Shown: in pieces, positions 5,523 through 63,614 of the stretch
How the letters are laid out: each line of letters starts with the position of its first letter
How positions within the stretch are numbered: the stretch's first letter is position 1
DNA from: Euglena gracilis
Lineage: Eukaryota
Length of the DNA stretch: 64,000 nucleotides
Reading direction: 5' to 3'
Assembly: GCA_039621445.1 (NCBI GenBank)
Contig: CP154954.1
Coordinates: forward strand, 25,494,954 to 25,558,953
Notes under the pieces: generated by a model
Database searches by the model: none
Told to the model about the DNA's origin: nothing
What the model saw: only the letters and a program-made list of their open reading frames with translations
Position numbers and translations under genes: made by a program

Positions 5523-5556
<34 letters not shown>

Positions 5557-35623: not shown

Positions 35624-35656
<33 letters not shown>

Positions 35657-35844
35657 CTTTTTCGGCGCCTTTGGCGCCGAAAATTTTGAAAACGGTGCTA
35701 TTTTTGGCATTTTTGGCCGTTTTCAGGCAAAAGTGGGTGGGTCCCCCGGGACCCCCCCCCTCCCCCAGAGGGGCCCCACCCCAGGGGGTGGGTGGGTGGG
35801 TGGGTGCCAACCCCCTCCCCCCCCAGTCTTAAAAAAAACCCCTG
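35546..35844. mobile_element. hAT-like MITE, family C
   Basis: Collinear with 29612-29911; perfect 8-bp TSD CTCCCAAG. Confidence 0.9.
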
Positions 35845-38040: not shown

Positions 38041-39369
38041 ACATAAGTGTGTGTGTGTGTGTGTGTGTTTATCGTATTTGCGTACAGGATTTTTGGGAAA
38101 GTGGCTCACGTCAATGTGATGTGTATGGCTCCTCTTTTTTTTGGTCCAGAGCCAAAAGATCTCCAGCTGTGGGGTCTTCTTAGAATTGGGCAGGCTTCTG
38201 TTTGACTGGGAAGGCCTCCAGTAGGGTCGGGGGGGTCCAGTGCCAGACTCCGTGGGGGTCCCGGGCTGGAGGGTTTCGGCGAAGCGCCGCAATTGTTTTG
38301 CGCGCCGGGCCGTGTGGATGGGCGGCACCCCCATCCCCCAGTACCCCCACCCAACACCCCCCACCACCCCACCACCCCACCACCACCACCACCACCACCC
38401 CAGCACCCCAGTCTTAGCAATACACCTCACTCAACAGTCTTAGCAACTCACCTGGACCATGGTTGTGCTGCCCCCCACTCCGAACCCGACCCAGTGGTTC
38501 GGATTTGAGGTTAGGGGGTCGTCCCCTCCCCTCCTTGGGGGGGGTCCCCGGCCCCGGTGGTAAGCTTCGCTCTTACTCTAAAGAGATAAGAGCTCAGCGA
38601 CGCCCCCATTTGCGGTTACCCCCCTCCTCCCAGATTGAATTTTTTTGGAGCTTGTAACCCGACCGAGGGATTTTGCTTTTCCCCTTCAATGACAATCTTT
38701 GGTGGGTTTTGGGGTGTCGGGGGGTTTAAGGGGGAGGGCAAGCCTCTATGATTCCATCCCCCACCTCCCAAGCAGATGTCGGCCACCAACCCCATCCCAG
38801 CAGTTGCGTAGCTGGCACTGCCTCCGGAACGAGACTCTCCCTTCGAAACCGTGCCCTATCCCCCTCTCCTCCCTTGTTCTGCAGCGGGATGGCTGACGCC
38901 CGACATGAGTGTACCCTGGCGCAAACCTGTGAGGCCTGGGTTTTTTGCCATTGGTTTGATGCCGCGTTGGGGTTCTTTGAATTTTCCTAAAAAAAAACAT
39001 ATGTCAATTGTAAAAAAAAAACCACATATTTATACAAATGTATTTAAGAGAACATTGTAGAAGGAGGAGGAGAAAATTTGATGACTCAATGAATGATTTG
39101 AAATGGTGTATTTCTTGGGACAATACTTTTTAGGATGGCATCAGACCCAGTCCCACCCAAAGACGCACTCCCATCATTTTTGTCATTGAACCGTGCCCAC
39201 CACCCGGCGATTGATTGCCCCAAAGGGAGGAAATCCAAGTTTAAAGTTCTGATTTAAACGAATTTAAACGAACGTGCATTTGGGAAACAATGCATTTGCG
39301 CGGCTCATTTTGGACAAAAATGTGACTGCCGTGAATATTTTGTGTGCGTGTGTATTTGGATGAAATGCA

Positions 39370-40268
39370 ATTATTTATATAATATATTTATTAGTATTTA
39401 TATTAATATTAATATCAATATTAATATTAATATTAATATCAATATTAATATTAATATTAATATTAGCATTAACATTTATGTCAATATTCACATTCATATT
39501 CACATTCATATACTTAATAATATGATATCCATATTCATATGAATATGAATATGAATATGAATATGTATATTAATATCAATATTCATATTCATTTCAACAT
39601 GAATATGAATATGAATATGAATATGTATTTCTGTATTAATATAAATCTTAACATGAATATGAATATAAATCATAATATTAATACGAATATTAATATTGAT
39701 ATTCATATTAATATTGATATTAATATTAATGAAGAGGAAGAGGAAGATGAAGAGGAAGAGGAAGAGGCACGGAAGAGGAGGAGGAAGCTGCGAGAGAAGA
39801 GGAAGATGAAGAGCAAGAGGTATAGAGGAAGAGGAGAGGAGAGAGAGAGGAAGACTACGAGTAATGGGAGAGGAAGGTTAAGATTAAGAGTAAGAGGAAG
39901 ATGTGAAGAGGAAGAGGAAGAGAAAGAGGAACGAGAAGAGGAAGAGGCAAAGTGAATAGGCAGAAGGGAAGCGAGAGGGGAAGAAGAGTAGGAGGAAGAG
40001 AATAGGCAAGAAGGGGAGAATCGAGACGAAGAGGAAGAGGGAAGAGCAAGAAGAAGAGGAAGAGGAAGAGGAAGAGAAAAAAAAAGAAGAGGAATATTAT
40101 TAGTATTATTATATTGATATTAATATTAATATTAGTATCAATATTATATTAATATTAATATTAATTTAATATTAATATTAATATTAATATTAATATTAAT
40201 ATTAATATAATTATTGATATCAATAATAATATTAATATTAATATCAATATTAATATTAATATCAATAT
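39370..40268 (+). repeat. Compound low-complexity block: (ATTAAT/ATGAAT)n, (GAAGAG)n, (ATTAAT)n
   Basis: Direct inspection. Confidence 0.95.
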
Positions 40269-41919
40269 TGTGTGAAGGTCAGGAGGCTTTGAAAACAAGG
40301 TGACAAAACATGGAGGGAGAGGATCTCCTGAAGGTGGGTGAGCAGCTTCCCGATAACGGTACACGTCCACTGGCACCAATTTTAGGATCCCAACGGCCTT
40401 GCCACTGGCCTGCGGCCTGGGCTCCGCTGTTGCAGCCACATCAGCTGTTGATGCTTCAGCACCCACCAGACCGGCATTCACCTCCCCGGTGCAACAACAC
40501 CCAGTTTTAGCGGCCACGTTATACCCCGCAACCGGGGCGTGAGACTGGGGGGACGACGTGGTGCCAGTGCATCGCAACCGGCAGCCGGAGAAAGGTAGCC
40601 CTGAAGCCCTGAAGCACCCGTTATTTTGGGTGCAAGGAATTGTTGAACCTTTACCCCTCGTTTGGTTGTATGAAAGCGGTGGGACTCACTCCCCTCAAAT
40701 TATGCACAAAGCTTGGTGTGTTTTACGCTTTTCAAAGGAAAAATGGTGGAGAATAACCAGAAAACGGACTCCGGTCCGACACATGCCGGGTATTTCAAGT
40801 GCCAATTTTTGTCTTCTTGTAACGCATTACTGTTGCAGAAAGGGTGTTCCAACAGTCACAGGTCCTTGCACGTCATCAATTCATTACGCGTATCTGCCAA
40901 ACAGGTGAGGCCAAAACAGCCGGCCTTATGGGCCGGGGAACAGCAGTGCAAATGTATACACGTAAGCCAGGCAATTTTTAGCCAGTCAGAGCGTTCCAGT
41001 GAACAGTAAACAGAATCTCTCACCACAAATTTTATCACCACGTATTCGTTGTGCGAATCAATGGTTGGCGTGAGGAATTGTGTTTGCCAGCCGTCATGGA
41101 CGAGGAGATAGTATCGCACAGCTGACATGTGTTGGTGCGCGCATTTGCGCGCACCAACACAATGTGTTTGTGTGCGCTATGGCTCCTACAAACACATTAT
41201 TTTGAAGTGAATTATTAAATGTTGGTGCGCGCATTTGCGCAAATGCGCAAACAAGTGTTATTGTGTTTATTTGCGCAAATGCGCGCACCAACACGTCTAT
41301 CGCATTCAAAAACCTCGTAGAATCATCGTCCTCATCAGTGTGCTTTAACACAGACATGTTGTTCGTTGCCTCCCATTGTACAAAACCATCCACATGTCAG
41401 TTTCCCCAAGATGTTGGTTTGCGCATTTGCGCGCACCAACAAATTGTGTTTGTGCGTGCATTTGCGCCCACAAACGTGTATTTTTTCTTTCTATAATGTT
41501 TTCTATAATGTTGTGCATTTATTTGCGCCTACCAACACACATCAGTTCCGTGATGGCTGGCTGACGTAGTCTGCAGTATGTGATGTAAGAAGGCTCTGTG
41601 TGTTCTTACAGGCGGCTGCAGAACCAAAGCCAGTTCCTTCACCACGTCAGCACCAGTTCCAAGTGTCGTAACAGCCGGTGTGTGTTTCCCATCTGTTTGA
41701 TGTACAAGAGCACCAATCACACCCTCCATCCTCTTTGCATCAGTCGCTGAGCAACATGCGTACCAAACCACCTGGAGTCACATCCCCTCAACAATGGGGT
41801 GCAATAGTTCATAAGCTGTCTTGCGTGTGTCAGGGTGCAGGGTCCCAGAAATTGCGTAAAATTTGCGCATTTGCGCAAATGCGCACATTTCAAAGAAAAA
41901 CCCGCGAATCCGGCCGCCT

Positions 41920-42459
41920 AATTATTAATATGAATGTTAATATTAATATTAATATGAATAATAATATTAATATTAATATGAATATTAATATTAATATGAA
42001 TATGAATAATAATATTTATAATAATATCAATATCAATATCAATATTAATTTTAATATTCATATTATTAATAATAATATTATTAATATTAATATTAATATT
42101 AATATTAATATTAATATTAATATTAATATTTATATTAATATCAATATTAATATTAATTAAATATGAACATGAATATTTATATCAATATTCAATTTAATAT
42201 TAGCATTAATATTAATATTAATATTAATATTGATATATATATTATATATATATATATATTATATATATACTAAATATTGTTGTTTTTCTCGGTTTTTTTT
42301 TTTTTTAACCCGAGACTCAGGGTTAAAGTTTGTTTGAAAACGGCCATGTCATTCTTATAAATCAGACGCAATGGCTCAATCCCCAGAGAGAATGGGAGGG
42401 GCAGTGGTTTTCACTTTCTGGAACACGCACTCACACACACGCACAGACACACTCACACT

Positions 42460-46907: not shown

Positions 46908-47315
46908 CAGGCTTTTGCTTAAGGGATTGCAGTACCCCCCAGGGGGGGGGGGGGGCTGGATCGCAGCTAGTCCAAATTTGGCTAGTGGGATTTCTAGCAG
47001 ACCCCCGGGGGAGTCTGGGGGGGGGTCTGCTAGCAGGGCTAGCTAGTGGGAAATTTTTTTTCCAGTGACCGGCGCGAAGCGCCGAAATTTTTTTTTTGGG
47101 ACCCCCCAAAATGGCCAAAAATGCCCGTTTTTGGCTATTTTGGGGAATTTTTGGAACAAAAACAGCCAAAAACCTATTAAAACCCTCATTTTTAAGACCT
47201 AGCTAGAGCCCCCTCCCCCCCCGGGGGGAGGGGGGTCTAGCTAGTCCACTTTTTCCAGTGTCTAGCCGATTGGCTAGCCAGTACCCCCCCCCGGGGGTCC
47301 TTAAGCAAAAGCCTG
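46908..47315. mobile_element. hAT-like MITE, family D (TIR CAGGCTTTTGCTTAAGG)
   Basis: 17-bp perfect TIR and perfect 8-bp TSD CCCCCGGC. Internal GCTAG repeats and a GGCGCGAAGCGCC hairpin. A diverged copy starts at ~23492. Confidence 0.92.
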
Positions 47316-48664: not shown

Positions 48665-48865
48665 GATGCAGGCCAATGTACCTGACCCCCACCCACCCCC
48701 ACGCCTGTCTTGACACCGCCATTCCGGTGGATGGCTCTGGTGCTCGTCGCGTGGTCCCAATCGGTCTTGTGCTGCCACCATCTGGGGTCACATTTTATGG
48801 GCAGGCTTGATTGATCCGAAATGGTCTCGGTAACCAAATCAGATTTCATTCACATTGCAGAACCG

Positions 48866-49196
<331 letters not shown>

Positions 49197-50816
49197 AATG
49201 GATAGCTACAGCTAATTGCGGATCAGCCCAAAAATCCAAGGGTGATAATTATAGATAATTATAGATTCTTATGGATAAGCCAAAAGTTTTGATCCCTGAG
49301 GATGGGCAATGACTGCATGAAGCTCATTTATTTTAAAAAGGCCATTTTCGCCCACTTTAGGTCATTTCTGGCTGCCTTGACTGATCCTGGCTGCTTTTCA
49401 GGCCTCCACTTTTGGTCACTTTAGACTACTTCTGGCTGCTTTTGGCCACTTTTATTTTTTACTGCTGTTTGGCCACTTTTAGCTATTTCGTGGTGCGTCT
49501 GGTTGCTTCTGGCGTCCTTTGTTGTTTTTTATGGCATTTGCCTAGTTTTAGGCATTTTTAGGCGATATTGTGATTCGGTTTCATGCGTTTTCTGGATGGA
49601 TATTCCCAGTAAGGAAGGGATTTTTTGGAATTGTGGATTTTTACAGATAACTGCGGAGCACACCAATCCTTGTATAATTCTTTGGGTTGGGGTTTCCCAG
49701 TTGTATGTTCAAATCGGTCAATTTTGGGGTTTTGTCAGGAAAGTTTGTATTTTGGTGGGGGGTTTTTTGCGACGTTTGATTTCCACTCATCAAAATACTC
49801 ATTGATCAAACCGGTGGAGTGTCTGTGTCTGTGTCTGTGGCTGGGTGGAATTGGGACATATCCATGAGGACAGTTTCCGCCTGGGAAAACTTTTTGGCCA
49901 GCTCGAAAAGCAAGTCTGTTTAAACAATGTGCACAGTCAAAGCGCTGCACGTTATAACAGGAGGTTTCGATTGTGTCCCATATTTGTTTCTCTTTTTTCC
50001 TGTTCGCAGGATTGTTCGTGATTTTTCGTGTCATCTGATTGCATGTGATTTGCATGATTTTTTTGCGGATCTCAGAACAATATTCCCAGGGTTAATATCA
50101 GTTGTATGTTACATTTCTGGAATGATTGTCAAGATTGCAGTCAAAATTTGCAGACGACCTGCAACGTTTGCGATCATGATTGCTGTCTCGAGATCAAAAC
50201 AAAATGATTCAAAAATAGCAACCCCCCCAAAAATAACACCCCTTGGGGTATTATTTTTTCGCCCGAAGTCCCGGCCCAAGGGGGGGGTATTACTTGGGGG
50301 GAAGGTAATAGCTCCCCAAGGTTTTCAAAAATTTTCGAAGCCCCATAGAACCCAGAATAGCACCCAAAACCCCCCATTTATTGCATTTTCTCATGAAATT
50401 TAGCATTTTTGGAGGCCTCGTGATCAATATCAAGGTCAATATCTGGGTCGTCGGCCTGAAATTTGGGGGGGGGGGTATTAACTCGGTCGCCTCCCGGCCC
50501 AGGGGGGGGGGGTATAACTTGGGAGAGGGTTTACGTCAAAATTTTCCATACCCCTATGTTTTGTGTGTGAAAATCTGAGACCAGCCGTTGAGAGCAAAAA
50601 ATTTTGCGATTTGATGCCCCATTCCCACACTGTACGTGTTTGTGTTGCTTGCTCCACACTTATGATGATGATCATCACACGCTCCATATGCTCCAGCTAC
50701 AAGTTTTGGTATCTCCCAATCCACAGAAGTTGCCATATGCTGTGAAAATGACTTTTTTTGAATCAAGCGGTGCAAACCGCCTCCGTTTTCTAGCACCCCC
50801 TCCCCCCCCCCCCCGG

Positions 50817-50920
50817 CAGGGCTGTACGGGAAGGCCTGGTGGGGGGGGGGTCGGACCCCCACCAAAGGTGAGGGGGTCGTGGGAGGTGGGGGGTGGGGTC
50901 GACCCCCACCACCCACCAGG
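50817..50920 (-). mobile_element. Family F MITE end (CAGGGCTGTACGGGAAGGCCTGG), the same family as introns 53576 and 57659
   Basis: The reverse complement ends CCAGGCCTTCCCGTACAGCCCTG and carries GGGGTCGACCCC. Further pieces are at 21910-22126 and 56910-56987. Confidence 0.7.
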
Positions 50921-53454
50921 GCACCCGCTCAAAAAAAAATTTCTTTTGGCTGCCCTGTGTGGTCCAAAGTGTGCCGGCCATGTTCTGGCAGCAACAGCCC
51001 CCTCCCTGCACTGACAGCACAGGCCCCCCGCCCCATCACGCCGACTCAGTAGCTCGGGGCCCTCCATCACACCGGTGGCCCCGGCCAACACCCCACGCCT
51101 CAGGCGGTCGCCTGAGAAGAACCGGCATTCCGACAAGCCCTTTCCTTTTGTTGTGACGGGGCGCTTCTCCGGTTTTCGAGACCAGAAACACCCCTCTTCC
51201 CCTGGGGTCGGTTATTTTTACCTATTCTCTGGTTTGACCCTAAACGCATCTTTACCCTTAAATTGCTGATGCCCAACATGCTCTGCATACATTTTGGGAC
51301 AGTCTCTAGGGAGGAGACCCTGCATCGACGCAGGCAAGCACCTCCAGCGACAAATCCCGACAAATCTGACAAATTCAACAATTATGGAAATTTAGCATGT
51401 GCCTCTAGTAATATACCCAGTTCATTTTTGCTTTATTTTTTGGGGACGAGATTTGGGGGTTTGCTTTGCTCGTAGGTTGTCATAACCCAAATTCACGCTC
51501 CACGTCATCAATGACGCTTTTGGTTTGTATGTGTACCGCGAAAGGAGTTCCTATGCCATAGAAAGTCTGATAAGGGAAGATCACCATCCCATAGAGAAAC
51601 CATATGGTGGACCACACCTTATTTGGCTTGGAAAAGAAGTCCCTGACTGGTTTTTGGAAGAGTGTAAATTAAACCGAATTCCCAGAACAACAATTGACAA
51701 AGAAACAAAAGGCAAAGAATATCTACGGCTTCTGCTTCTGGAGGGTTCATGAGAGTACCCCCCCCCCTCCGGGGTACACAGGGAAAACGAAGGCAGAGCA
51801 TTCTTCGATTGGGCTGCTTCAACGGGAGGGGATACATCTTTCCACAGGGTTCTGAAGGCACACATTTGGAATGCAATTTTTGAGTTTCATTGAGCTTCCG
51901 CATTCTGCAGAGGCTTTTGAGGGGAACGAAACGGGATCGCAGTTGTCACCTTCCGCCCCCTTGGCTCCACAAATATGCTCAGGGTTTGGCATCCCCCGTT
52001 GTACGTATGATTCCACACAATTGGCCCCTTGGGGGGGGGTCATTTCCGTTTGGGCAATTTGGCCCGTTTTCCTGTGCTGTCCACCGGGGTGACAACCGGC
52101 GTCGATCACCTGTTCTGACGTCCAGTTGGGGGGAGGGGACGATGCAAGCAGAATAGAAACCATGTTTCTGATCCCTGTGAGGAGGCGTTGAGCCGGTGGC
52201 CAAGTGACAGTGTTGCTGGATGTGCAACGGCTTGGGCCCATCACCAAATGCTGGGGCTTCCCTCTTTGATGGCACCATATATATACCCGGCTCCCGCCCC
52301 CTGCCCGCCCACCCGCCCGCCTGCCCCCCCCCCCTGCCTGTCGACCTGACTTGCACGTGTGTCGATTCACTCCCGCACAGACAATTGCCCACTCCCGCAC
52401 AGGCCCTCGCCGACTGCTGGCCCCCTCATCACCCTGCCATTTCCAAAGCCAGTCTCTGTCCGGGCTTTTTTTAAGGAAGGTCGCACCCCCCAGGGAAATG
52501 CAATGGGCAGGGGGTTTGGCATTTCAGTCCCCCCCCCTGAGTGGTTTGAAGTGGGTACTGCTATGGTAGTTTTTTTTTGGGTTTTTTTTTGCTCTTTCGA
52601 CGCCTCACCGGAATTTGAGGCACCACAAGGGTGGAGACAGCGAAGCCTGCTCTGACTGACTGTCTGACCCAACCCACTCCCGCGAAAAGCTCCCCAGCCT
52701 CGACTTCTGACCATCCTGCACAGCTCCTCGCCCCGTCCTAGACACCACAGCTTTCCGTCTGGTTCTGCAGTCTTCAGCACCCCAGCCGATGCCTGATACC
52801 GGCACAGAACGTTGACTCTTAGTGCTTTCAGATCCTGTTTCACGGTATGTGTTCGAAGAGTGCCGAGAACGCAACTGGGGATGCAGGCGGGCATCAACAA
52901 AGTCTTGCTCGTTCTTGCTGTCTTTTTTCTCTCCATTGTGCAGGTGCACCAGTGCACCCCCTAAAGAAATCCTTTCTGGAGTAGGCAGATGGGGAGTGGT
53001 GAATCAAAGGTGAAGGGTCTAATCGAACATTTCTGGTTTTCACCCATATTTTGTTTTGGGGGTGCCTGGGGAACCGCCCCTTCCTCCTCCTCCTCCTCCT
53101 CCTCCTCCTCCTTCTTCTTCAAGGAACTTTTTCCCTCCAAGCAGGGTGAAATCCCTGGGTCCGAGGGGGTATTACCGGGTCTGGCCGACCTTTTTCCCCA
53201 TAGAGAAATGCCCACACAGCATAGCTTTAACGAGTTTGACATGGAAGAGTTAGCCCGAGGAACATGTGATGGGCCATTTATCAAAAATACACAATGTGGT
53301 GTCCCTTAAACCACAAGAAGGAGAAGAAGAAGAAGAAGAAGAAGAAGAGGCGGAGGAGGGGGAAGAGGAGGAGGTGGTGGTGGTGGAGGAGGAGGAGGAT
53401 GAGGGGGAAGAGGAAGGAACACTGCACTTTGCCCACCTATTTGTCCAACCGTTG

Positions 53455-53483
53455 CCATCACCCTCTCCTCCTTCTCCCCGCAG
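53455..53483 (+). promoter_or_regulatory. Candidate spliced-leader trans-splice acceptor
   Basis: Polypyrimidine tract ccatcaccctctcctccttctccccg followed by CAG (AG 53482-53483), 20 nt before the ATG at 53504. Confidence 0.55.
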
Positions 53484-53503: not shown

Positions 53504-54013
53504 ATGGACAACCTTCTCCAGGCCAACACCCCCGTCCAGCGCGAGGGCGCCCAGCCCACGCCCAGCTTTCCCCCCGGCCAGGGCTGGCCGGGAAGCCCCG
53601 AGACCTTGACAGGGGTCAACCCCCCCCCCACCAAGCCTTCCCGTACCGCCCTGCCTCCGGCAGCCTGCCCTCCTCCCCGCAGGTCAGCTTCCTCACCGCC
53701 CTGGGGCAGGCAAGCAAAGGGGTGGGTGGCCAACCCCCCCCCCCCCCGCGGGCGCGTGGAAACTGTTTCGCCGGCACGCTTGGAGGAGTGATTCCGCAAA
53801 GTGGAGCCTCCCACAGTACCCCACATTTAAGGGTGGGGGCTCCATTTTATGCCATGTATGTATATATACATGTATATGTATATATGTACATATATACATA
53901 TACATGTATATATACACGTACATATATGTATGTGTATCTGTATGTGTGTATATATACGTATATGACACACATATGTGTATACACACGTATGTATATGTAT
54001 ATGCACGTGTGTG

Positions 54014-54045
<32 letters not shown>

Positions 54046-57000
54046 TGTATGTATGTATGTATGTATGTATGTATGTATGTATGTATGTATGTATGTATGT
54101 ATGTATGTATGTATGTATGTATGTATGTATGTATGTATGTATGTATGTATGTATATGTATATATGTATACATATGATAATATATGTATGCATATATGTAT
54201 GTGGGCTGGCCCTTGGGCTTGGGCCAGGTCGGGGCGGGACGCGCGCATCAGGTCCCCTCCTCCTCCCCACGGCGGCCCCCCTGCCAACCAGCCCCCGCCC
54301 CGTGCCAGCCGCCCCGCCCCCTCGCCATGGTGCTGACCAACTCCCCGCCCCCCCGCCCCGCCAGGCCACCTCCCCCCGCCCTGGGCCGGACTGGGGGGGT
54401 GGAGGGGGGCGGACGGCATTCTGTTTCAGGCAAGTGCTTTTTTCAATTTTGGGGGTATTTTAAGGCTTTTTGAGGCATTTATTTTCCAAGGCACAGTCCG
54501 GACATCAAACCAACGTCGGTCCGATTCAAAAGCCAAAAAAAAAGTCGAAAAACTCATTTAGGTGGATGGCAGTTTTCCAGCGATGCCAAAAAAAATCATT
54601 TTTTTCCCGGGTTAGCTTGTTTTGCCAATATTTTTCTTCATTATTTATTGCTAGGTCAGAGAAAATTCTGCCAAAATGACTGATGTTGACTGACTGGTGT
54701 TTTGAGGCATTTTAAGGCGCATCGTGTTGTTTCAGGTTTTTTAAGTTGCGGTATTGCCTAGGTGGGTGAGGGGTGTGGTTTGGTGGCCAATGGGGGGGGG
54801 ACCGCAAACAGGGGATCGGGGCACCCCACACACCCATAAATTAATGGAATTTAATTGATTTATTTTTTTTAATTAATCAACTAAAAGCGTGTCCCAAACG
54901 CCATTCTTGTTCTGACGCATCATCACATTTGAAAGGATCGGCATTGCAAATCGGTGCGCGTCGGACAAGCGGCCAGCAGCCCCGCCCGGCGCCCAAGCTG
55001 GGGGCGCGGTCCCCCTGGAAGGGCCGGCTAGGCAGCAGCCGCATGTCCAAGACCGAGTCCCTCGCCAACAAGCAAGGCTCCATGGCCGCAGCCGGCTCGA
55101 GCGTTGGTTGAGAGACACGTTCAAGAGGCAAATACCCCCTCCGTTGTAAGGCAGGGTGCGCTGTGGCCAACGAGGGTTGCTGGGGGTGGTGGCGTCGGGC
55201 TACGCGTCCAAACAGTGTACAGTTGTAGTGATCTTTTCGAAGGGGTTGCATATTTTTTCCCTCATAAACCAGGGTTTTGCCAAAAAAAAACACAACAGAC
55301 AGTTCAGAGTGTGTCTCTGAGGTGGGAGATATCCAAGAAAGTTGTGTTTTTGAGGCATTTGCATTTGCATAGTAAATTGTTGAATGGCTGGCCATTCCTT
55401 TGTTTGGTTAGCCTGGGGGGGGAGAGGTGCTCAAGAACAGACTTGTTCACTCCGTCGGCTAGGGCTCCTCTGCTTGCACCCTGTACTTGGAAGGGTAAAT
55501 CTGATCCCCCCTGCCTGCCAGAAAGGTTCGCTGATCAATGTACTCCACACAGTGGCAGTTAAACCAGCTTTTGTGTGCAGGTCCTCCTCCAAAAATAAAG
55601 ATGAGTGTTGAACCAACATGAAAGGGAGGGTCCTCCAAAGGACTCCTCAAAGAGAGGTCCTCCAAAAGTTCGTCGGAAATTTTCCATTACTTTGTCTCCG
55701 ATTATGTTCCAAAATAGGTGTTTCCAAATCAGAAGCAGAGATTCTGCTGTGCCCTTTTTGACGCATACTGAGTACAAAAATGAGAACCACAAACGCTTAC
55801 ATTTTCAGCGTTTTCTTTCAGTCTCGATTCCGTCAACTTTTTTCAGTCTCCATTAAAAAGCAATCTTTCAATTATGATTGGTTTCCCAAAATGCTTGAGG
55901 TTTTTCCACATTTTTTTAAAGGTTTGGAAATCAAGATATATATATATAAGGTAGCAAGAGTTTACTCGGCCCACGGGCCGAGTAAAGTCTCCAGGGGGGG
56001 GGTCCGTGTAGCATCCCCCACGCCCAAGCTTCGGGAAAATTCGGGGCTATTTCTCGGGATAGGGTTAGGGTTCCGACCGGATTCCGGGACGGCGCCCCCA
56101 TTTGGAATTTAGGGAGAGGTTCGGCCGCATTGCCGACAGTTTCCGACCGAATTAGGGTCGAATTGCGGTAAAATTACGACGAAAGGGCGACCCAAAAATC
56201 TTCAAAACGGCGACCTAACTTCCGGCCTAACTTTATCCCTAAAACGCGCCAATTTTCTGTGCGCCGATTCTTACCCTAACCATATTCCTCTGATAATAAG
56301 TGCGGAATCTCCCCGGATCCGACAGATTTGGCCCGGATCCGGCGCTGTTCCGGGGCCCCGCGGGGCCGAAACGGGGGGAACGGGGGACGCGGGGGATGCT
56401 ACACGGACCCCCCCCTGGAGACTTTACTCTAAAGTCTTGCTAAAGTCTTGCTGCCATATATAAATATAATATATGTTATATACTAATAGACGTGTATATG
56501 TGCATATATATATATATATATATATCTGTATGTATAATAGATATAATTATAATATACAAAATAAACGAAACCGCTGAATTCTCCGTCACCGTGGAGCCAG
56601 CCCTCAAGAGGTGCCCAACGCTGGCGCCTCCGGCTTCGAGGGGGCCCCGGGGTCGATCCATGAGCCGCCGGAGCTGGACCTCGACGCGGACCTGGAGAAG
56701 GAGCTGTCCCTGGAGCCGGAGGTGGTGGAGGAGGTGCCCCACGTGTTCCGGATCGTCCTGACGGGAGGGCCCTGTGGGGGTGTGCCATCCTTCCGGAAAT
56801 TCCTGCTCTTGCGGTGGACCATGCTCAATGATGATTTCGACTCCCCCGTTGGCACTCTTTCTCCGTTGGGTTGTATAATAACGTTCTGTGTTCTTTGTCA
56901 TCCCCATCCCAGGCCTGAAACCCCATATGGGTGGTGGGTGGGGGGTCGACCCTCTCCCATTTTTTGTGGGTGCCCCCCCCCACCAGGACGGATTTGAGGT

Positions 57001-60000
57001 GGGAGTTTTTTTAAATTTTCTCTTCGGCTCCAAAGGAATTTACGCTTGTGCGGTGCTGTGGTGGGGGTGGGGATCGGCCCCCAGACCTTCCGGTGCAACC
57101 CCGCGCCCCCTCGTTGGTGCAGCACGGAGTCTGCCGCCACCGCCGTCAGTCTGGAGCCACCCCCCCACCCATGACGTCCCTCCCCGCCTGCCGGTTTCCC
57201 TCGCAGGTAAGACGACTGCGCTCTCCACCATCGCGGACTACCTCCGGTCCCTGGGCACCCAGGTCCGTGTGCTCCCCAGCCCTGTGCCGCGCCTGCCAGC
57301 GGGCGGTGCGTGGCAGCATTATCTCTGCAACACGGCTGATGGCGCATCACGTGCTGTGCAGCTTTTCGTTCGGCGGTAGAGCATAGGATGGCCCCCAAAG
57401 TTCGATGGGAATCGGGCAATTTCACGGGAACTGCAAGAAAACGGTGAAAACACAGCCCGGCTATCCACCCAAATTTTCCCCCTGAGACCCCCCCCCCATA
57501 GCTTACATTTGCGTACGTTTCGAAAGTGAGCTTTTCGTCCGCTGGCAGCGCTGCCCCGCCCCCCACAGGTGTTCATGGTGCCGGAGAACGCCACCATCTT
57601 CGCCAACGGCGGGGCGGGCTTCCCGGTGCACTCCTCCAAGGCGCAGCAGATGTGCTGGGAGCAGGGCTGTGCAGGAATCCCCACAACCTTATGGGGGGGG
57701 GGTCGACCCCCCACCCCCATCCTGGTGGTCGGGGGGGGGGGGTCCCGACAACCCCTCCCCGCCAGGCTTTCCCGTGCAGCCCTGGCCGGGAGAGCTCCCG
57801 CATCATGTGCCAGATGAAGATGGAGGGCCAGCGGCCCCTTGGCGCCACCCCCCCCCGGTCGGGACGCTCTTGTTTGAAAAGAATGGAAGTGTTTTTTTGC
57901 CGCTGCGGCCCATCCCCCTGGGCACTCTGGGCATTGGTGAGACGCCGCCAAAGTTTCGGTATTTCGGCATCGACCTCGCCAAAATTTTGATGTCGACCTC
58001 TGCTACCCTTCACATTCCCCGAAAAGAGGTGCCTCATCATCGTCGCCATTACTGAGTCGGGATTTGAATTCTTTTTTGATGTTTCCCAGGGCGTTTTGTG
58101 TCTCGCCGCCAAGTAACATAGGGGCCTTTGTTTTGCACAGGAGGATGGCAGGAGGTCGATGGCCCCGCTTCCCGTCTCGTTTCTGAGATGGATGCAGCCA
58201 TGCCCCGACGTACCCGGCTCGGCCTCCTCCACCTGAGATTGCCATCCTGGAGGCATCAACAGAGTGCAAATTGCATTATTTCCTGGAACAGCAGAAAGTT
58301 GCCCACGTGTTGAAAACGTGGTGGTTTTTGGAAGGCCTGGAAGTGACAGGGAGACAACAAGAAGGCCAGCCAGTGCAAGATCATTCGAGGGCAAGTATTA
58401 CCCCAACCCCGGGGGGGGGGGGGCAGGAGAGTGGGCAATGCACCGCTGCGGGGGACTGCTTCATCCAGATCGCGAAGTCGAGCGGCAAGCCCACCGTGGT
58501 GCTGTGCGACCGCGGGACGATGGACGCTGCAGCCTACATGGACTCGCAGGTCTGACCCCACCCCACCTTTGAAGAGTACTGGCTGGGGCTCAAATGATCC
58601 GTCGAATGAAGCCCGATGTGTAGAGACCAGGTCAAGCGCATTGGCTGGAAATTTCGAGTTTGCTGAAAAAGGCTCCAGGCTAACTCCCATCCCCTGGGTT
58701 GGGGTCCCAATGCTGGGAGCAGACCAGCGCTCGCACCCAACGTAGGAAACATGGAGGTGGAGATGTGAAAGCAAAAAGAGCAAGGCATTTTTTGATTTTG
58801 AAGTTCCATACAAAACGTTGCATACAAAATTGATCAGGAAAAAAATTGGTTGGGCAAAAATCGCCCAAATATTTCCTCAGCATTTTAAGGATTCCGCCCA
58901 ATTTTTTCACCGACTGTGCACTTGAAGCATCTCCAGAAAAAGATATACCAAATGGTTGTTTTCTGGATGAATTCTGGTTTTTGTTCCTTTTTTCTGAACT
59001 CAATCTAATGAATTCTGGATAAAAGGAAGGGACATATGCCAAGGGGCTAAGGGCTGATAACTCGGTGGCCGAGAGTTCAGCGCCGGACCGAGGGGTCGTG
59101 CATTGATTGTCATTCAGCATCATGTTTTCTAGAAGGAGAACCACCACTCACTTATTTCCAGACCAATTACCATAGTTTGGGTGCCCAAATATGTGCCCAA
59201 TTTTTCCGCAATCAATTTTTCCTGAACTAATTTATACAGGACCAATTTTTGACCCCTCCCCCAGTATTTTTCAACCCGATTTTGGCCTAATTTAGGAATC
59301 CATTTCAAAATGCAACGGCGTTATTGTCCACGACGATTAAATCAGGAGTAAGGCCGAGGCTGGAAATAGGCTAGCTGGCTGACCTCCCCAGCAGCTTCAC
59401 CAATAAAGGGATTCAGGAGGTTTTCGCATCATATCAGCAGTGCAGCATGGCAATTCTGCTTTTCTTTGAGTCTTCTTTTGCTTACAGGTTTATTCATGTT
59501 TTTCTAATACGTTTCACCTGCATTATTCCGATCGATTGTAGTGTGGTGGCATCTAGGCAGAGCAACATCTCATGGAGCGAAAAGGACCGTGCCAGGATGG
59601 GGGTTTGTGGCACCTCCGTGCAATGATTCCGCAGCGCTGGAACGAGCTAATGGAGCAGATGGGATGGCCAGGGATAGTCCGGCGCTGTGGCAGCAAAGCG
59701 CCCCCTCCCCCTGATGGGGTCTGTCCACGGACCCGGAGGATGGCGGCTGGCTTGGTCCTGGGTGGCCCCCGCACGCCTGGTTTCAGGCATGGCGACGCAG
59801 GAGTGGCCAACGTTGGCACTCCCACTGCCCCCCCCCCGGCCGGTCCCTGAGGGCCGGCAGACGGACATGCTGCGGGAGGAACGGTACGACGCGGTGATCC
59901 ACCTGCACTCCACGGCCATCGGGGCGGAGGACTACTACACGCTGAGCAACAACCAGGCCCGGCGGGAGGGGCTGCAGCAGGCCGCGGAGCTGGATCAGAA

Positions 60001-62944
60001 GATCGCCGCGGTGTGGGCTGGCGGGGGCCTGGGAGCGTCGGGGGCAGTTTGGCCTGGGGTCCATCCAACCGAGAGAGGATTTTTTTTTCTTGGCATGAAA
60101 TTCAAAGTAAGCACATATTGAAAGTCCTCGTCCTCTCATCCAGTCGTTCTCCGCCTGTCATTTGACCTTAGAAAAAAAAACACACCTTGGGGGGAAAGTA
60201 TGGCGCTTCGAACCAAAATTCATTTGATAATTCATGGACTCCTTCAGCCTCCTCGTATTTGTTTCCCCCTGTGGCACGCCGGCCCCACGCTGCCTCTTCC
60301 CCCCCTTCCAGCCCTCCTGTCTGTCGCCAGGTGTGGAAGGGCCACCCCCACGTGGAGTACATCGACAACTCCACGGACTTCCCGCAGAAGATCATCCGCG
60401 TCGTGGAGGCCATCTGCCGCATCCTCGGCATGCACGCCCCGACGTCCAACGGCTTCTTCAAGTGTGCTGCCCCCCCCCTGCTTTGTATCACCCACGCCGG
60501 GCGCTGGCAGTGCAGCGGTGTGTTTCGGGGGGGCTCCGGCGTTGGTGCGGACAAGGCCACAGACAAGCGGTGTGTGTGTCACACGGCGAGGCAGTTGACC
60601 CCGAGCAGATGGTCTCTTTTTCGAAATATCTGCCTGTGGGGAGGGGGTCCAGGGCTGGAAACAGGCTGCCGGCTGGCTGGACCCCCTCTCCTGTGGGGGT
60701 GGGTGACCCTCCGGCTTCAGGGGTGCCCTGATTCGAGGACGAAAAGGGGGCGAATCGACATCGCCCTGTGGTTCCAGGTAGCTATCTTTTCTGTTGTTGT
60801 TTTTTGTTTTTGAGACCTGGTCGTAGCCGAAAAATACTGGTCTCGGCGATCCCCAGGCCAGCCAGGTCTGTTCAACACTCTGTTCGCATAGGATTATCGA
60901 AGTTCCAAAATAGTCCAGCAACAACCATGTGCAGGAATAGGAAAAAAAGATTGACAAGGAAGAGGAAGATGATATGGAAAAGGAACAAAGGATAAGGTCA
61001 AACACGGTTTGCTGGCTTCTGCACCCACCTCCCCTACCCCAGGGTATGAAGTGAGTGAAAATCTGGGCTGCTGCTGGCTGACTGCCACACCCCACTGGGT
61101 CCCATGGCTAGAACTAGGCCCGAAGCTGGGGTCGAACCAGGTTCAAAAAAAAAGATCGAAATGTCAAAATGACCAAATAACAGTGCGGTAACAGCAATTC
61201 CAATAACAAGTAATTCCAATAACAGTGCGGACAAAATCACAGGAGACCCCTCCACCGGGGGGGGGGGGCGCTGGGGGACCCAAAAGTGCCAAAAAGTGTC
61301 CAAAATGCTTTGTAAACAGATCTGTGCAGTTTTGGGGGGGTCTTCGGCCAGAAATTGGGGGTTTTTGTGCAGGAATTTGTTTTGGCCAATTTTGTGGAAA
61401 TCTAAGCCCGTCTGCTGAAAGCCCTTGAGAAGAGCTTTCGATCAAGGGGCAACATGGCTGGTGCAACATTGCGAGCAGGGTCGGAACATGCGATCGGCGA
61501 TTTTCAGAGCGCTGGGCATTGTGGCTGAGTTCTGTGGGCAGCAAGCGAAAGGCCTTGGGGAGAGCTTTCGATTGATGTGCTACATGGTACACCCCCCTCC
61601 CCCTCCCTCATTTATTGCCTTGGGTGGGGGGGGTGCACGGGCTGCCTGTATGTATGTATGTATGTATGTATGTATGTATGTATGTATGTATGTATGTATG
61701 TATGTATGTATGTATGTATGTATGTATGTATGCATGCATGCATGCATGCATGCATGCATGCATGCATGCATGCATGCATGTATGTATGTATGTATGTATG
61801 TATGCATGCATGCATGCATGCATGCATGCATGTATGTATGTATGTTTGTATGTATGTATGTATGTATGTATGTATGTATGTATGTATGTATGTATGTATG
61901 TATGTATGTATGTATGTATGTATGTATGTATGTATGTATGTATCTCGCCGCGGGGCCGCAGGGTGTTCGGCATCTCCCGGGATTTCAAGGACGTGCTGCC
62001 CCGGCTGTGCATCCGCTTCGAGGAGTTCTTCGTCCAGACCGATTTCCTCAAGAACTCCGGCCCGCGCGCCGTCCTTCCCCCTCCCCTCCCCTCCGACACA
62101 CCTCTTCCCACACCGGCTCGGCGGAGGCTTCCGCAGTCTCTCAGTACGGACCGGCGGGGTTCTCTGGCCCACCGCTGTGTCTGTCCGCCGGGCAAAGGGT
62201 GTGGCGTTGTGCCGTGCGACGCGGTTTGGCGGTTTGGCGGTGGCGGTGCCTCAACACCCGCTGTGTGAGGCACCGCCATCCCCGACCCGCCCCCGACCTA
62301 CCCCAGCCGGCAGCCCCGGCCCCGCCCCTTACCGACTCCAGCCGACATCCCCGACCCGCCCCCTACCTACCCCAGCCGGCAACCCCGGTCCCGCCCCCTA
62401 CCGACTCCAGCCGACATCCCCAACCCGCCCCTTACCGACTCCAACTGGCAGCCCCTGGCCCGCCCCCTACCTACCCCAGCCGGCAGCCCCGGCCCCGGGG
62501 ACGGCGGGCGGCCCGCAGCGCGGAGAACAACCAGAGCGTGCGGGTGCGCCGGCAGCGCGACCACGCCTCGGAGCTGTCCCTCTACACCTGCCGGGGGCAG
62601 CGGTGGGCAGTGTCGCTGGTTCGGGGGATGGGCGGTCGACATCGAATTCCTTCTGCAGCTTTCCTGGACATATTTCTGGACAAATCCCGGAAAGATTTTT
62701 CCGAAATTTTTCCCAAAAACCTCCAACGCCAACCCTCAACTGCGTGTCTGCGGCATGTTCAGGGCAGGCAACTTCGGGGTGACTTGCGTAGGACCCAGCC
62801 ATTCTTCTGCAATTCCTGCACCCGTCCTCCCCTCCTCCCCTCCCCGCCACCACCAGCCCCGCCACCGGCGTGCTCGCCAACAACAAGGTGGCAATCGAGG
62901 AGCGGGCCATCGACGCCAAGGAGTATTTCTCACTGTTGAAGCAG
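53504..62944 (+). CDS. Ttd14: Ttd14-like protein (P-loop NadR/Ttd14 AAA domain + CYTH-like C-terminal region), multi-exon, 3' end beyond window. Well-supported exons: 56609-56779, 57207-57262, 57569-57658, 57790-57825, 58454-58549, 59635-59665, 59856-60010, 60331-60461, 61962-62058, 62517-62602, 62857-62944. Probable 5' exons: 53504-53575, 53659-~53709, ~54960-55076
   Basis: The spliced translation keeps phase at every junction: HVFRIVLTGGPCG|GKTTALSTIADYLRSLGTQ|VFMVPENATIFANGG...CW|ESSRIMCQMKME|DCFIQIAKSSGKPTVVLCDRGTMDAAAYMDSQ|RWNELMEQMG|WQTDMLREERYDAVIHLHSTAIGAEDYYTLSNNQARREG...KIAA|VWKGHPHVEYIDNSTDF...GFFK|VFG...QTDFLKNS|SAENNQSVRVRRQR...YT...|PATGVLANNKVAIEERAIDAKEYFSLLKQ. Walker A TGGPCGGKTT, CDRGxMD, RYDAVxHL, AxGAExYYT.xNN and WxGHP...IDNS are motifs I recognise from the Ttd14 family. 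Linkage of the 5' exons is less certain. Confidence 0.85.
53576..53658 (+). other. Nonconventional (non-GT-AG) stem-forming intron, MITE-derived
   Basis: C|GGCCAGGGCTGGCCGGGAAG...CTTCCCGTACCGCCCTGCCTCC|G. CAG at +4..+6 and CTG at -8..-6, complementary ends. Removal gives PSFPP|GSLPSSPQ. Flanks cccccggc/cctccggc (7/8 match). Confidence 0.75.
53853..54201 (+). repeat. (TATG)n / (TA)-rich microsatellite
   Basis: Direct inspection. Confidence 0.97.
55942..56462. mobile_element. Long-TIR foldback element inserted in a TA-repeat, probably inside an intron
   Basis: GAGTAAAGTCTCCAGGGGGGGGGTCCGTGTAGCATCCCCC (55980-56019) is inverted at 56391-56429. The outer ends TATATAAGGTAGCAAGA / TCTTGCTGCCATATATA lie in (TA)n. 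Confidence 0.8.
57659..57789 (+). other. Nonconventional intron, a complete short MITE copy
   Basis: GAGCAGGGCTGTGCAGGAA...TTCCCGTGCAGCCCTGGCCGG. CAG at +4, CTG at -8. Removal restores the conserved frame (CW|ESSRIM). Flanks gctgggag/gccgggag (7/8 match). Confidence 0.85.
57826..58453 (+). other. Nonconventional intron
   Basis: GGCCAGCGG...CCGCTGCGGGG. CAG +4 and CTG -8, with CAGCGG/CCGCTG pairing. Joins KME|DCF in frame, and no GT-AG alternative was found. Confidence 0.8.
58828..59233. mobile_element. Diverged MITE within intron 58550-59634
   Basis: Imperfect inverted ends AATTGATCAGGAAAAAAATTGGTT / AATCAATTTTTCCTGAACTAATT. Confidence 0.5.
59666..59855 (+). other. Nonconventional intron
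   Basis: GGCCAGGGATAGTCCGG...CCGGCCGGTCCCTGAGGGCC. The ends pair, with CTG at -9 (one nt off consensus). Joins T|GG = Trp in frame. The boundary is ambiguous by up to 3 nt (GGC repeat). Confidence 0.7.
61647..61943 (+). repeat. (TATG)n/(CATG)n microsatellite inside intron 60462-61961
   Basis: Direct inspection. Confidence 0.98.
62059..62516 (+). other. Nonconventional intron with CCG/CGG in place of CAG/CTG
   Basis: C|GGCCCGCGCGCCGTCC...GGACGGCGGGCGGCCCGC|A. 12/13 complementary positions starting at +4/-6, with Y|R at both junctions. Joins KNS|SAEN in frame. Confidence 0.7.
62277..62496 (+). repeat. C-rich minisatellite (~35/70-nt units, CCGCCCCYTACC core)
   Basis: Repeated CCCGCCCCCTACCTACCCCAGCCGGCAGCCCC and CCGCCCCTTACCGACTCCAGCCGACATCCCC. 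Confidence 0.85.
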
Positions 62945-63614
62945 GTGCGTCTGTGCGCTTCACGATGTGTGGGCACGTTGTGACACCGCCCAAGTATCAT
63001 CCAAAATCCAAAATTGATCACACCCATTTCTTTCGAATTTGGGTGGATGGGCACGATGCCAGAAATCATTTTTTCCGGAACCGGGTTGTTTTTGCCGAGA
63101 TTTTTGACTTCATTAATTTTTGCGAGTGGCAGTCTTAATGGGCCCGAGGGGTCCACAACAGGGCTGGACTAGCTGGTGGAGATTTTTTCCAGTGACCCGT
63201 GCGATTTGCCAAAAAACTTTGACCCCAAAACTTGCCAAAAAAAATGCCATTTTTGGGGATTTTTTGGAACAAAATCAGCCCAAAAAAAAACATCAAAACC
63301 TCATTTTCACCTCGACGCGCAACGCCAGAGGAATTCTTTTTCCAGTCGCCCAACCCCCCCCAGACCCCCCCGGACGGCTCGCTGACCCCCCCTGTCGAGT
63401 TCCGAATTCAACCAGACAAGGGGAGGGGAGAGGGGTTTTGGGACCCAAACTCGACTGCCTACCCCCCAATGACCACCCCATGGTCATAGGCCGCAGGCTG
63501 GAAAAGGCAACCACAGAATGATCTGATGCCCGTGCGTGCTTTATTTTACTTTATTACTATTATTATTTATTTTACTTTATTATTTGTTGTTACTCCCCGG
63601 GGAGGGGCGGGGGG

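Follow-up and report, generated by a model that had tools for sequence, protein, structure and literature searches.

The host gene and its nonconventional intron

The window analysed here, a stretch of 64,000 nucleotides (64 kb) of Euglena gracilis DNA, contains on its forward strand a gene for an AAA_28 P-loop protein, which was traced by RNA joints, tblastn and the Pfam family PF13521 from position 53504 to 62947 and continues beyond. The gene is 100% identical to the protein EG_transcript_6081 over the queried 50-aa exon and likewise over six further exon matches. PF13521 (AAA_28) is the precomputed assignment for the proteins P0001-P0005, and Pfam searches with five single small exons returned no family for four of them and a weak AAA_28 match (E 0.0057) for the fifth. 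RNA and DNA reads were mapped over positions 54200-62250, an interval outside which lie the repeat copies A4, A5 and that at 21.9 kb described below; within it, five GT-AG introns and five non-GT-AG introns of the gene have RNA support. Two of the six non-GT-AG introns of the gene (54374-54991 and 55084-56654) fit neither the splicing code nor the transposon model considered in this work. The window and an RNA contig differ by 2 nt at position 54348, and a repeat occupies 54016-54154 within the same gene.

A sequence-only reading of this DNA had placed an intron at 57659-57789, and the RNA bears it out. The joint 57656->57788, at which 131 nt are absent and which can slide by 5 nt, is crossed by 13 reads of RNA run X21 with 13 different starts and is contained in one 1965-nt RNA contig of run X15; run X24, whose depth is low at this place, has no read with the joint. 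The joined exons form a single open reading frame, and the protein P0001 spans the site as ...QQMCW|ESSRIM..., with 100% identity over the junction. The sequences quoted by that reading were likewise found where it had located them. Six registers of the junction are compatible with the mRNA (GG..CC, GG..CG, GA..GG, AG..GG, GC..GA and CA..AG), none of which has GT-AG or GC-AG borders. The stretch, hereafter copy A1, is a genuine intron of the Euglena nonconventional (NC), non-GT-AG type, and this alters the meaning of the original observation.

The splicing code of Euglena NC introns has been given as 5'-N3CDG-/-CH'GN5-6|R (Nomura et al. 2025, PMC12501133), and the E. gracilis consensus as CCAGG / CCTG (Gao et al. 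2024, PMC11170887). The borders of A1 are an exact fit to the former: set in the register of that code, the intron reads GAG-CAG...CTG-GCCGG | G, with CAG at +4..+6, CTG at -8..-6 and a purine opening the next exon. As far as the available text of these two papers goes, A1 resembles their NC introns in its non-GT-AG borders, the positions of CAG and CTG, the 3-nt and 5-nt spacers, the purine-start exon, the terminal stem and the 5-nt direct repeat on account of which the junction is "slidable". Knock-in tests are described in which the CAG/CTG and spacer signature is what the non-GT-AG splicing pathway needs, and in E. agilis 71.8% of the introns are stated to be nonconventional, 61.2% of these fitting the code (PMC12501133). 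Excised NC introns are reported to be circular (PMC12501133, PMC11282704); no back-joint indicative of a circular intron is present among the RNA joints listed for the host-gene region.

Copies of the repeat family in the window

The interior of the intron had been proposed to belong to a dispersed repeat family, with copies at 21.9 kb, at 50.8 kb in reverse complement and at 56925-56987. The family search was restricted to the 64 kb of the window, and BLASTN with positions 57640-57800 as the query upheld the membership and the first two of these copies: A1 matches 21941-22018 (76.8% over 82 nt, E 1.2e-12) and, on the minus strand, 50863-50812 (83.9% over 56 nt, E 2.4e-8), both matches being the same with DUST low-complexity masking on. 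The element core within the intron (57662-57784) is tied by BLAST and nhmmer to the copies at 21.9, 50.8 and 53.6 kb. Its 23-nt 3' end occurs, with at most two mismatches, at three sites of the window (50817-50839 on the minus strand, 53631-53653 and 57762-57784), against an expectation of none from 100 dinucleotide shuffles. A1 itself matches 56925-56987 weakly (nhmmer, E 0.047-0.15), and that locus joins the family by way of the 21.9-kb copy, which aligns colinearly with 56911-57079 (nhmmer, E 3.3e-6; 80% over 50 nt, E 3.9e-6 with DUST). The family thus has five loci in 64 kb, at 21.9, 50.8, 53.6, 56.9-57.1 and 57.66 kb, and the copies are diverged, with 71-84% identity over 33-82 nt.

The five loci differ in their setting. 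Two of them, A1 and A5, are exact introns of the host gene. A5 (53576-53658, plus strand) is the second NC intron in question, 83 nt long, and reads GGC-CAG...CTG-CCTCC | G around a core at 53579-53653. Residues 1-25 of P0001 are placed by tblastn at 53504-53578 and residues 26-38 at 53662-53700, from which it follows that the 83 nt are missing from the transcript. None of its six registers has GT-AG or GC-AG borders; its 3' end agrees with the conserved 23-mer at 21 of 23 positions, and it matches 50876-50815 with 82% identity over 62 nt (E 1.8e-10 with DUST). The family as a whole intron, as originally claimed, is therefore represented twice in one gene.

The claim that the family also travels as a passenger holds for one of the five loci, a degraded composite of A6 (56911-56990) and A7 (57040-57100) on the plus strand. 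This composite, spanning 56911-57100 and colinear with 21905-22126, sits inside a conventional GT-AG intron (56779-57205) that is supported by 19 reads of X21, seven reads of X24 and the X15 contig. The remaining two loci are apparently non-coding, by inspection of open reading frames only. A composite copy of about 215 nt (A2 and A3; 21912-22126, plus strand) was delimited by BLAST and nhmmer, and A4 (50812-50956, minus strand), in which the 23-nt 3' end is matched perfectly, is situated some 2.5 kb upstream of the first coding exon of the host gene. No coding-looking open reading frame was seen by inspection around either of them, and such inspection near 21.9 and 50.8 kb is weak in a GC-rich genome with short exons.

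The interior of the element consists largely of runs of G and C, which raises the alternative that the likeness of the copies reflects low complexity combined with convergent selection for a CAG...CTG hairpin, with neither descent nor mobility. Loss of the similarity after treatment of homopolymers had been named beforehand as the outcome that would speak against a family, and the result is divided. With runs capped at 3 nt the best non-self loci are unchanged, including those at 50.8 kb (E 2.5e-4) and 21.9 kb (E 0.002), with 22.07 kb at E 0.005 and 53.6 kb at E 0.013-0.036. The 21.9-kb match disappears once the runs are capped at 2 nt or collapsed to one, and part of this match accordingly leans on G/C runs; full collapse is too harsh a treatment, as it shrinks the query to 69 nt. 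Convergence could further draw on the weak direct similarity between A1 and the 56.9-kb copy and on the predicted stem of A5, which is not significant (z -0.90, with 38 of 200 shuffles folding equally well). It is nevertheless a very unlikely explanation. The matches persist under DUST, and the shared 23-nt end has a complex sequence, which occurs three times where none is expected and is far longer than the CAG/CTG and spacers defined by knock-in in the available text of PMC12501133. The same end and blocks also occur away from intron ends, in A4 upstream of the gene and in A6/A7 within a GT-AG intron, and convergence leaves the 8-nt flanking repeats described below unexplained. Common descent of the copies is the reading followed here.

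Further copies may be reflected in the DNA run X10. Over 57697-57965 the contig depths of this run add up to 2334, compared with about 40-60 in low-depth bins, a sum that is not a copy number. Two sets of contigs (13 and 12) have loose ends that extend the 56.9-kb copy leftwards, with a consensus like the 5' part of A1 and an agreement of only 0.54-0.56, and several contigs connect 56944-56948 with 57691-57710, as expected if further copies exist. The 28-nt 5' end drawn from RNA loose ends has no match in the window at up to three mismatches, and Rfam gave no match over the whole window. A metagenome scan with a degenerate 20-nt end returned four loci, which were rejected as chance matches on account of their bacterial-coding look and their lack of other family features.

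Inverted ends, flanking repeats and 8-bp duplications

The core of A1 measures 123 nt from inverted end to inverted end (57662-57784, plus strand), starting with CAGGGCTG and finishing with CAGCCCTG. These ends match at 8 of 8 positions, and at 8 of 10 over the first 10 nt. In the RNA fold the 5' arm (57662-57677) pairs with the 3' arm (57769-57784), which lies inside the conserved 23-nt end 57762-57784, in a terminal stem of 11 + 4 base pairs, reaching 15 bp, that is present in both the minimum-free-energy and the centroid structures. The minimum free energy is -90.2 kcal/mol, and one of 200 shuffles folds equally well (z -2.47, a modest value).

The element is bordered by an 8-nt repeat. The left unit, GCTGGGAG at 57654-57661, contributes its positions 1-5 to the exon and 6-8 to the N3 spacer of the intron; the right unit, GCCGGGAG at 57785-57792, contributes positions 1-5 to the N5 spacer and 6-8 to the following exon. 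The two are identical at seven of eight positions, and under a null drawn from the window the chance of a flank match of at least 7/8 is 0.0027. On its 5' side the intron extends exactly 3 nt beyond the inverted end, and on its 3' side exactly 5 nt; the sequence that is removed consists of the element and one duplicate, nothing more. The flanks of A5, CCCCCGGC and CCTCCGGC, likewise match at 7 of 8 positions. No flanking repeat was found at A2 and A3 (2 of 8 positions) or at A4 (0 of 8).

This geometry bears on whether an older intron already stood at the site and was later filled by the element as a passenger, which would then not be its origin. Passenger copies do exist in the same gene, as at 56911-57100 inside a GT-AG intron. 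An element landing within an older intron is, however, hardly credible as an account of A1, whose borders keep to 3 nt and 5 nt outside the inverted ends, whose flanks are duplicated at seven of eight positions and from which only the element and one duplicate are removed, the same geometry being repeated in A5. An origin of both introns by insertion is the better account, and the inverted ends together with the 8-nt flanking repeats support transposition as its mode.

The flanking repeats of A1 and A5 have counterparts elsewhere in the window. Five further elements with inverted CAG...CTG ends carry perfect 8-bp target duplications: 14993-15385 (CCCTAACC), 18298-18598 (TTCGGAGG), 29612-29911 (GACAGGGG), 35546-35844 (CTCCCAAG) and 46908-47315 (CCCCCGGC). 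Each duplication is of a different sequence, and the elements at 29612-29911 and 35546-35844 form one family (81% full-length identity, E 1.9e-71). A class test covered the 554 CAG...CTG pairs of the window whose ends match at 8 or more of 10 positions: the numbers of perfect flanking repeats at lengths k = 4 to 12 were 4, 1, 1, 0, 5, 0, 0, 0 and 0, and control flanks displaced by 15 nt gave none at k = 8. The flanks of the five elements do not look coding, by inspection only, the continuity of reading frames being uninformative in a GC-rich genome with short exons. All eight elements compared start with CAGG and end with CCTG, the duplication directly adjoining the outer C and G. A pyrimidine at position 3 and a purine at position 6 of the duplication are likewise common to 8 of 8, a regularity noticed post hoc. 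The 8-bp duplications of these elements suggest that the 3-nt and 5-nt spacers of the code together represent one 8-bp target duplication.

Flanking repeats of a new NC intron have been interpreted in another way. In the E. agilis strain ACOI 323, intron 4 of gapC is nonconventional, bears 8-nt direct junction repeats and is not found in other strains, from which it was concluded to be newly gained; the available text of Milanowski et al. 2016 (PMC4770533) explains it by double-strand-break repair and links it to no repeat family. The repeats of this gained intron, of the length seen at A1, also count in favour of the insertion model. A1 differs in that its 8-nt repeat comes with a family, with inverted ends and with five further elements whose duplications are perfect. 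Filler DNA from break repair, or the reverse splicing of a circular intron RNA, could in principle produce such an intron with no transposase. The latter would suit the reported release of NC introns as circles (PMC12501133, PMC11282704), and both would suit the scan of 10 of the 21 window ORFs of at least 230 aa, in which Pfam detected no transposase domain and no family of any kind. These routes are unlikely, if less so than convergence. Break repair leaves unexplained the inverted ends, the multi-copy family and the perfect, exactly 8-bp and differing duplications of the five CAG...CTG elements. Reverse splicing would import the old 3 + 5 spacer letters and would not repeat the new flank, whereas the repeats of A1 and A5 differ and each matches its own flanks.

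Transposition as the probable source of the intron

We regard it as probable, with good confidence, that 57659-57789 is a Euglena NC intron made up from end to end of one copy of a short, non-autonomous (MITE-like) DNA transposon. The element 57662-57784 would have inserted into the codons of ...CW|ESS..., duplicating 8 bp of the target. What the pre-mRNA loses is the element together with 3 nt of the presumed duplicate on its left and 5 nt of that on its right, and this exact loss of element plus 8 nt restores an uninterrupted reading frame. By analogy with the published NC introns, the inverted ends may fold into the terminal stem and so set CAG at +4..+6 and CTG at -8..-6. The shorter family member at 53576-53658 forms another exact intron of the host gene, and the other members appear to be passengers or to lie in non-exonic DNA. 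The original claim had been one of recent intron gain by transposition. Transposition is borne out by the inverted ends and the 7/8 flanking repeats of both introns; "recent" is not, as the copies share only 71-84% identity, neither the A1 nor the A5 duplication is perfect, and no contig of X10, the sole DNA run examined, has the intron-less joint 57656->57788 of an empty site.

A wider proposal is more tentative, and we stop somewhat short of favouring it: the NC code could be the RNA-level image of an 8-bp-duplicating transposon, and NC introns largely the fossil record of one such class. On this proposal each copy of the duplication would be cut between its positions 5 and 6, and a new exonic CAG...CTG insertion with a purine at position 6 would consequently be, from the start, an intron that can be removed precisely. 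The rule of a purine at the exon start would then mirror the target preference of the transposon, and the splicing machinery might have arisen as a system that recognises the ends of this transposon, or from such a system.

Since the 1990s the origin of euglenid NC introns has been described as mysterious, and a MITE-like source, proposed in 2014, is still only "suggested" or "plausible" in papers of 2025, as far as their available portions go (PMC3935182, PMC12501133, PMC12621601). PMC12501133 and PMC11170887, in the text available, define the signal, call the origin unclear, merely suggest MITE-like elements and name no intron-forming repeat family. What sets A1 apart from the published NC introns is a family with non-intron copies, and spacers that can be read as one 8-bp duplication. 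A literature search confined to main texts outside subscription journals found no repeat family that constitutes NC introns and no link of these to hAT or to 8-bp duplications. The present case, two exact NC introns of one gene in one family, gives the old idea of a transposon origin a concrete example and makes it countable on the assemblies published for E. gracilis and E. agilis. The curious rule of 3-nt and 5-nt spacers finds a plain explanation in it as well, namely that 3 + 5 = 8.

Introners, transposon families that form whole spliceosomal introns, are described in Micromonas, dinoflagellates (Polarella), fungi and others (PMC11282704). According to the available text they are, like the A1 family, short and non-autonomous, with inverted ends, target duplications and both exact-intron and non-exonic copies, and their removal falls to the spliceosome, which uses GT/AG sites derived partly from the duplication. 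A1, in contrast, has no usable GT-AG, and its own inverted ends would direct its removal by the NC pathway of Euglena. If the transposon origin is true, introners would extend to a splicing system other than the spliceosome, and proteins that bind these transposon ends would become candidates for its machinery.

The superfamily of the element may be considered from its duplication and its ends. Elements of the hAT superfamily make 8-bp target duplications and have short inverted ends that open with pyrimidine-A-purine-N-G. Among them, maize Ds reportedly acted as a new intron in a case ascribed to Giroux et al. in 1994 (cited in PMC3935182); the likeness to A1 lies in the 8-bp target duplication, in the short inverted ends and in the loss of the element from the transcript. 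With Ds it is the spliceosome that takes out the element, imprecisely and at cryptic sites, unlike A1. hAT is a candidate superfamily for the A1 family; no hAT partner was detected by Pfam in the 10 window ORFs scanned.

Merlin is an alternative to hAT and could supply the transposase. Two Merlin families with 8-bp duplications are described in E. gracilis, and Merlin generally has 8-9 bp duplications and a conserved terminal 5'-GG-3' (PMC8101967, available text). An 8-bp duplication therefore agrees with hAT and with Merlin alike. Compared by description only, Merlin shares with the window elements the 8-bp duplication and the type of organism; its ends are described as carrying a terminal 5'-GG-3', in contrast to the CA...TG of the window elements, all eight of which begin CAGG and end CCTG. 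As a separate observation, the 8-9 bp range of Merlin duplications parallels the N5-6 of the splicing code.

The spliced intron and its host gene

This eukaryotic window has a G+C content of about 52% and is rich in runs of G and C. From 53504 to past 62947 its plus strand carries a host gene whose product is an AAA_28 P-loop protein. The 50-aa exon at 59858-60007 matches the 575-aa database protein EG_transcript_6081 at 100% identity, followed by relatives at 94, 86, 79 and 62%, and PF13521 is precomputed on all five of these proteins. A tblastn search of the window with EG_transcript_6081 places six more exons at 100%; the remaining matches differ near 54348 or take in adjoining intron. Mapping over 54200-62250 of two runs of raw RNA reads (X21 and X24), one set of probable RNA contigs (X15) and one set of DNA contigs (X10) yields ten RNA-backed joints on the plus strand, half of them GT..AG (56778->57206, 57259->57566, 58544->59630, 60009->60330 and 60461->61962) and half not (54373->54992, 55083->56655, 57656->57788, 57824->58453 and 59665->59856).

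The joint 57656->57788 omits 131 nt, with 5 nt that fit either side, and is supported by 13 X21 reads with 13 different starts and by one 1965-nt X15 contig. No read of the low-depth X24 run crosses it, and it is absent from the X10 DNA contigs, in which no empty site was seen. When the RNA-backed exons are joined, a single open frame results (...KAQQMCW|ESSRIMCQMKME...), identical to EG_transcript_6081, which bears out the sequence-only reading of 57659-57789 as an intron. The 5-nt repeat permits six registers, none of them GT-AG or GC-AG. The register 57659-57789 reads GAG-CAG...CTG-GCCGG, then G, an exact fit to 5'-N3CDG-/-CH'GN5-6|R, the signature of Euglena nonconventional introns obtained by Nomura et al. 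with knock-in mutagenesis (PMC12501133), and its ends agree with the E. gracilis consensus CCAGG/CCTG (PMC11170887). In the computed RNA fold (MFE -90.2 kcal/mol, z -2.47, one of 200 shuffles equally stable), 57662-57677 pairs with 57769-57784 through 11 + 4 bp, a predicted terminal stem that would place both junctions together. The 57.7 kb intron is real and nonconventional.

Several smaller features of the gene may be recorded. At 54348, in a C-rich run, the X15 RNA contig and one of two X24 reads are 2 nt shorter than the window, and the reading frame that opens with the ATG at 53504 reaches the AAA_28 domain as in EG_transcript_6081 only with this 2-nt difference, which is either an allele or an assembly run-length error. 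The X21 reads are split at 57595 (C>T in 9/16) and 59905 (G>C in 15/29), where the X10 DNA and the X15 contig carry the window base only; the split bases could be alleles, a paralogue or strain differences. The C-rich pyrimidine tract at 53468-53483, with AG at its end 20 nt upstream of the ATG, resembles an acceptor of the conventional type, perhaps one used in spliced-leader addition.

A dispersed family with two exact introns

A BLASTN search of the window with the intron region as query retrieves 21941-22018 (82 nt at 76.8%, E 1.2e-12) and, on the opposite strand, 50863-50812 (56 nt at 83.9%, E 2.4e-8), and both matches are unchanged by DUST masking. The 23-nt 3' end of the intron, which is not of low complexity, occurs three times at up to 2 mismatches (50817-50839 on the minus strand, 53631-53653 and 57762-57784), and not once in 100 dinucleotide shuffles. 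With homopolymers capped at 3 nt, the best non-self matches are still those at 50.8, 21.9, 22.07 and 53.6 kb (E 2.5e-4 to 0.036); the similarity is thus kept, by a narrow margin for the 21.9 kb copy, which is lost when runs are cut to 1 or 2 nt. Of the three further copies of the intron interior proposed from sequence, those at 21.9 and 50.8 kb are recovered by BLASTN, but the one at 56.9 kb resembles the intron only weakly; it is colinear over about 170 nt with the 21.9 kb composite copy (nhmmer E 3.3e-6).

The 53.6 kb copy has ends of the same kind as the 57.7 kb intron (CAGGGCTGG...CCGCCCTG), and matches the 23-mer at 21/23 and the 50.8 kb copy over 62 nt at 82% (E 1.8e-10 with DUST). By tblastn, residues 1-25 of EG_transcript_6081 (...SFPPG|SLPSSPQVSFLTA...) lie at 53504-53578 and residues 26-38 at 53662-53700, and 83 nt are therefore absent from the transcript. 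In the register of the published code this intron is 53576-53658 (GGC-CAG...CTG-CCTCC|G), and it too lacks GT/GC-AG ends in all six registers. The window thus has five family loci, two of which are exact introns; another (56911-57100) is a degraded passenger within the RNA-verified GT-AG intron 56779-57205, and those at 21.9 and 50.8 kb look non-coding on inspection.

The family is clearly multi-copy in the X10 DNA. Summed contig depth, which does not equal copy number, reaches 2334 across 57697-57965 and 405 across 56890-57158, compared to about 40-60 in low-depth bins. An insertion variant at 57706 appears in 12 contigs, and loose ends of 13 + 12 contigs extend the 56.9 kb copy leftwards, with a consensus similar to the intron's 5' part, although agreement among the contigs is just 0.54-0.56. 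Several contigs connect 56944-56948 with 57691-57710, as other copies would.

Additional repeats occur in the window. The segment 61194-61462, within the GT-AG intron 60462-61961, is a very high-copy repeat, judging by a summed DNA depth of 54,727 (about 40-60 in low-depth bins); other bins of raised depth, all intronic, are 55814-56620 (1000-2100), 60656-60924 (992) and 58773-59041 (581). AT-rich 6/12-nt tandem arrays at 39329-40300 and 41880-42290 are inverted, about 2.2 kb apart, with arms of 308 nt that are 73% complementary. Long (ATGT)n and (TG)n microsatellites, together with a 34/35-nt tandem repeat in the intron 62059-62516, occupy 5373-5960, 48834-49200 and 62273-62514.

Eight-base-pair duplications

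The octamers immediately upstream of CAG and downstream of CTG agree at 7/8 positions both in the 57.7 kb intron (GCTGGGAG and GCCGGGAG) and in the 53.6 kb intron (CCCCCGGC and CCTCCGGC); for random 8-mer pairs of similar spacing in this window, the frequency of identity of at least 7/8 is 0.0027. A scan of the window for CAG...CTG pairs, 40-1700 nt apart and with the first ten letters inverted at no fewer than 8/10, returns 554 pairs. Perfect abutting direct repeats among these number 4, 1, 1, 0, 5, 0, 0, 0 and 0 for k=4 to 12, and shifting the flanks by 15 nt leaves none at k=8. The five perfect 8-bp repeats border CAGG...CCTG elements of 299-408 nt (14993-15385, 18298-18598, 29612-29911, 35546-35844 and 46908-47315), whose flanks are not exon-like on inspection, and a sixth element, at 9482-9962, has flanks of 6/8. 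One pair among the five shows 81% identity across the full 300 nt, and both members are thus ordinary MITE copies. The perfect repeats at five elements therefore indicate that the genome holds a class of short CAG...CTG-ended elements which duplicate 8 bp upon insertion, and in geometry the 57.7 and 53.6 kb introns match these elements.

The host gene has two other nonconventional introns that fit the code, 57826-58453 and 59666-59855 (the latter with a 6-nt spacer); their flank identities are 5/8 and 6/9, the look that would be expected of older insertions. Neither the code nor the insertion picture accommodates the non-GT-AG introns 54374-54991 and 55084-56654. The proposal of a mobile family present both as whole intron and as passenger holds in kind, with two exact introns and one passenger, but 'recent' gain does not follow: identity among window copies is 71-84%, each of the two intron duplications has a mismatch at one position, and an empty site was not seen. 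The case is one of an introner-like family removed via the nonconventional Euglena pathway and not by the spliceosome.

Several CAGG...CCTG elements share a central palindrome type (...CGGCGCC..GGCGCCG...) with A/T runs on either side. In 8/8 elements, the two introns included, the duplication has a pyrimidine at position 3 and a purine at position 6, a pattern noticed post hoc. Perfect 8-bp flanking repeats also border two candidate elements whose 10-nt ends are inverted at 9/10 or better but lack an initial CAG, namely 55950-56455 (ATATATAA), within the nonconventional intron 55084-56654, and 11525-13153 (AAAGTGCA).

Probable mechanism and relation to known transposons

At the 57.7 kb intron, the RNA loses the element and exactly 8 nt. 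The cut points are 3 nt beyond the 5' end of the element and 5 nt beyond its 3' end, both falling between positions 5 and 6 of each 8-mer copy. Most likely the element landed in an exon that was until then uninterrupted, and its inverted ends would form a hairpin recognised by the nonconventional pathway; since 3 + 5 = 8, removal would restore the pre-insertion message letter for letter. Excised nonconventional introns are reported to be circular (PMC12501133, PMC11282704).

A transposon (MITE-like) origin of these introns is still a suggestion in a 2024 review (PMC11282704), in the 2025 paper on the code, where 'origins ... remain unclear' (PMC12501133), and in a 2025 diplonemid paper (PMC12621601). 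The literature searched, comprising main texts outside subscription journals, contains no report of a repeat family with nonconventional introns as its members, nor one in which an 8-bp duplication is linked to the 3 + 5 spacers.

Elements of the hAT superfamily make 8-bp duplications, as do those described here, and their ends classically begin pyrimidine-A-purine-N-G, which the CAGGG ends fit. Merlin transposons, with 8-bp duplications, are reported in E. gracilis; their ends are said to bear a terminal GG (PMC8101967), whereas the CAG...CTG elements are without it. Assignment to either superfamily needs an autonomous partner, and no Pfam family was detected in the ten ORFs scanned out of the 21 in the window of at least 230 aa. 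Eight-nucleotide direct repeats at a newly gained, strain-specific gapC intron of E. agilis were read by Milanowski et al. in 2016 as a mark of double-strand-break repair (PMC4770533). The data from the window favour a transposon reading of this repeat length, and the old hypothesis of transposon origin becomes directly countable on existing assemblies.
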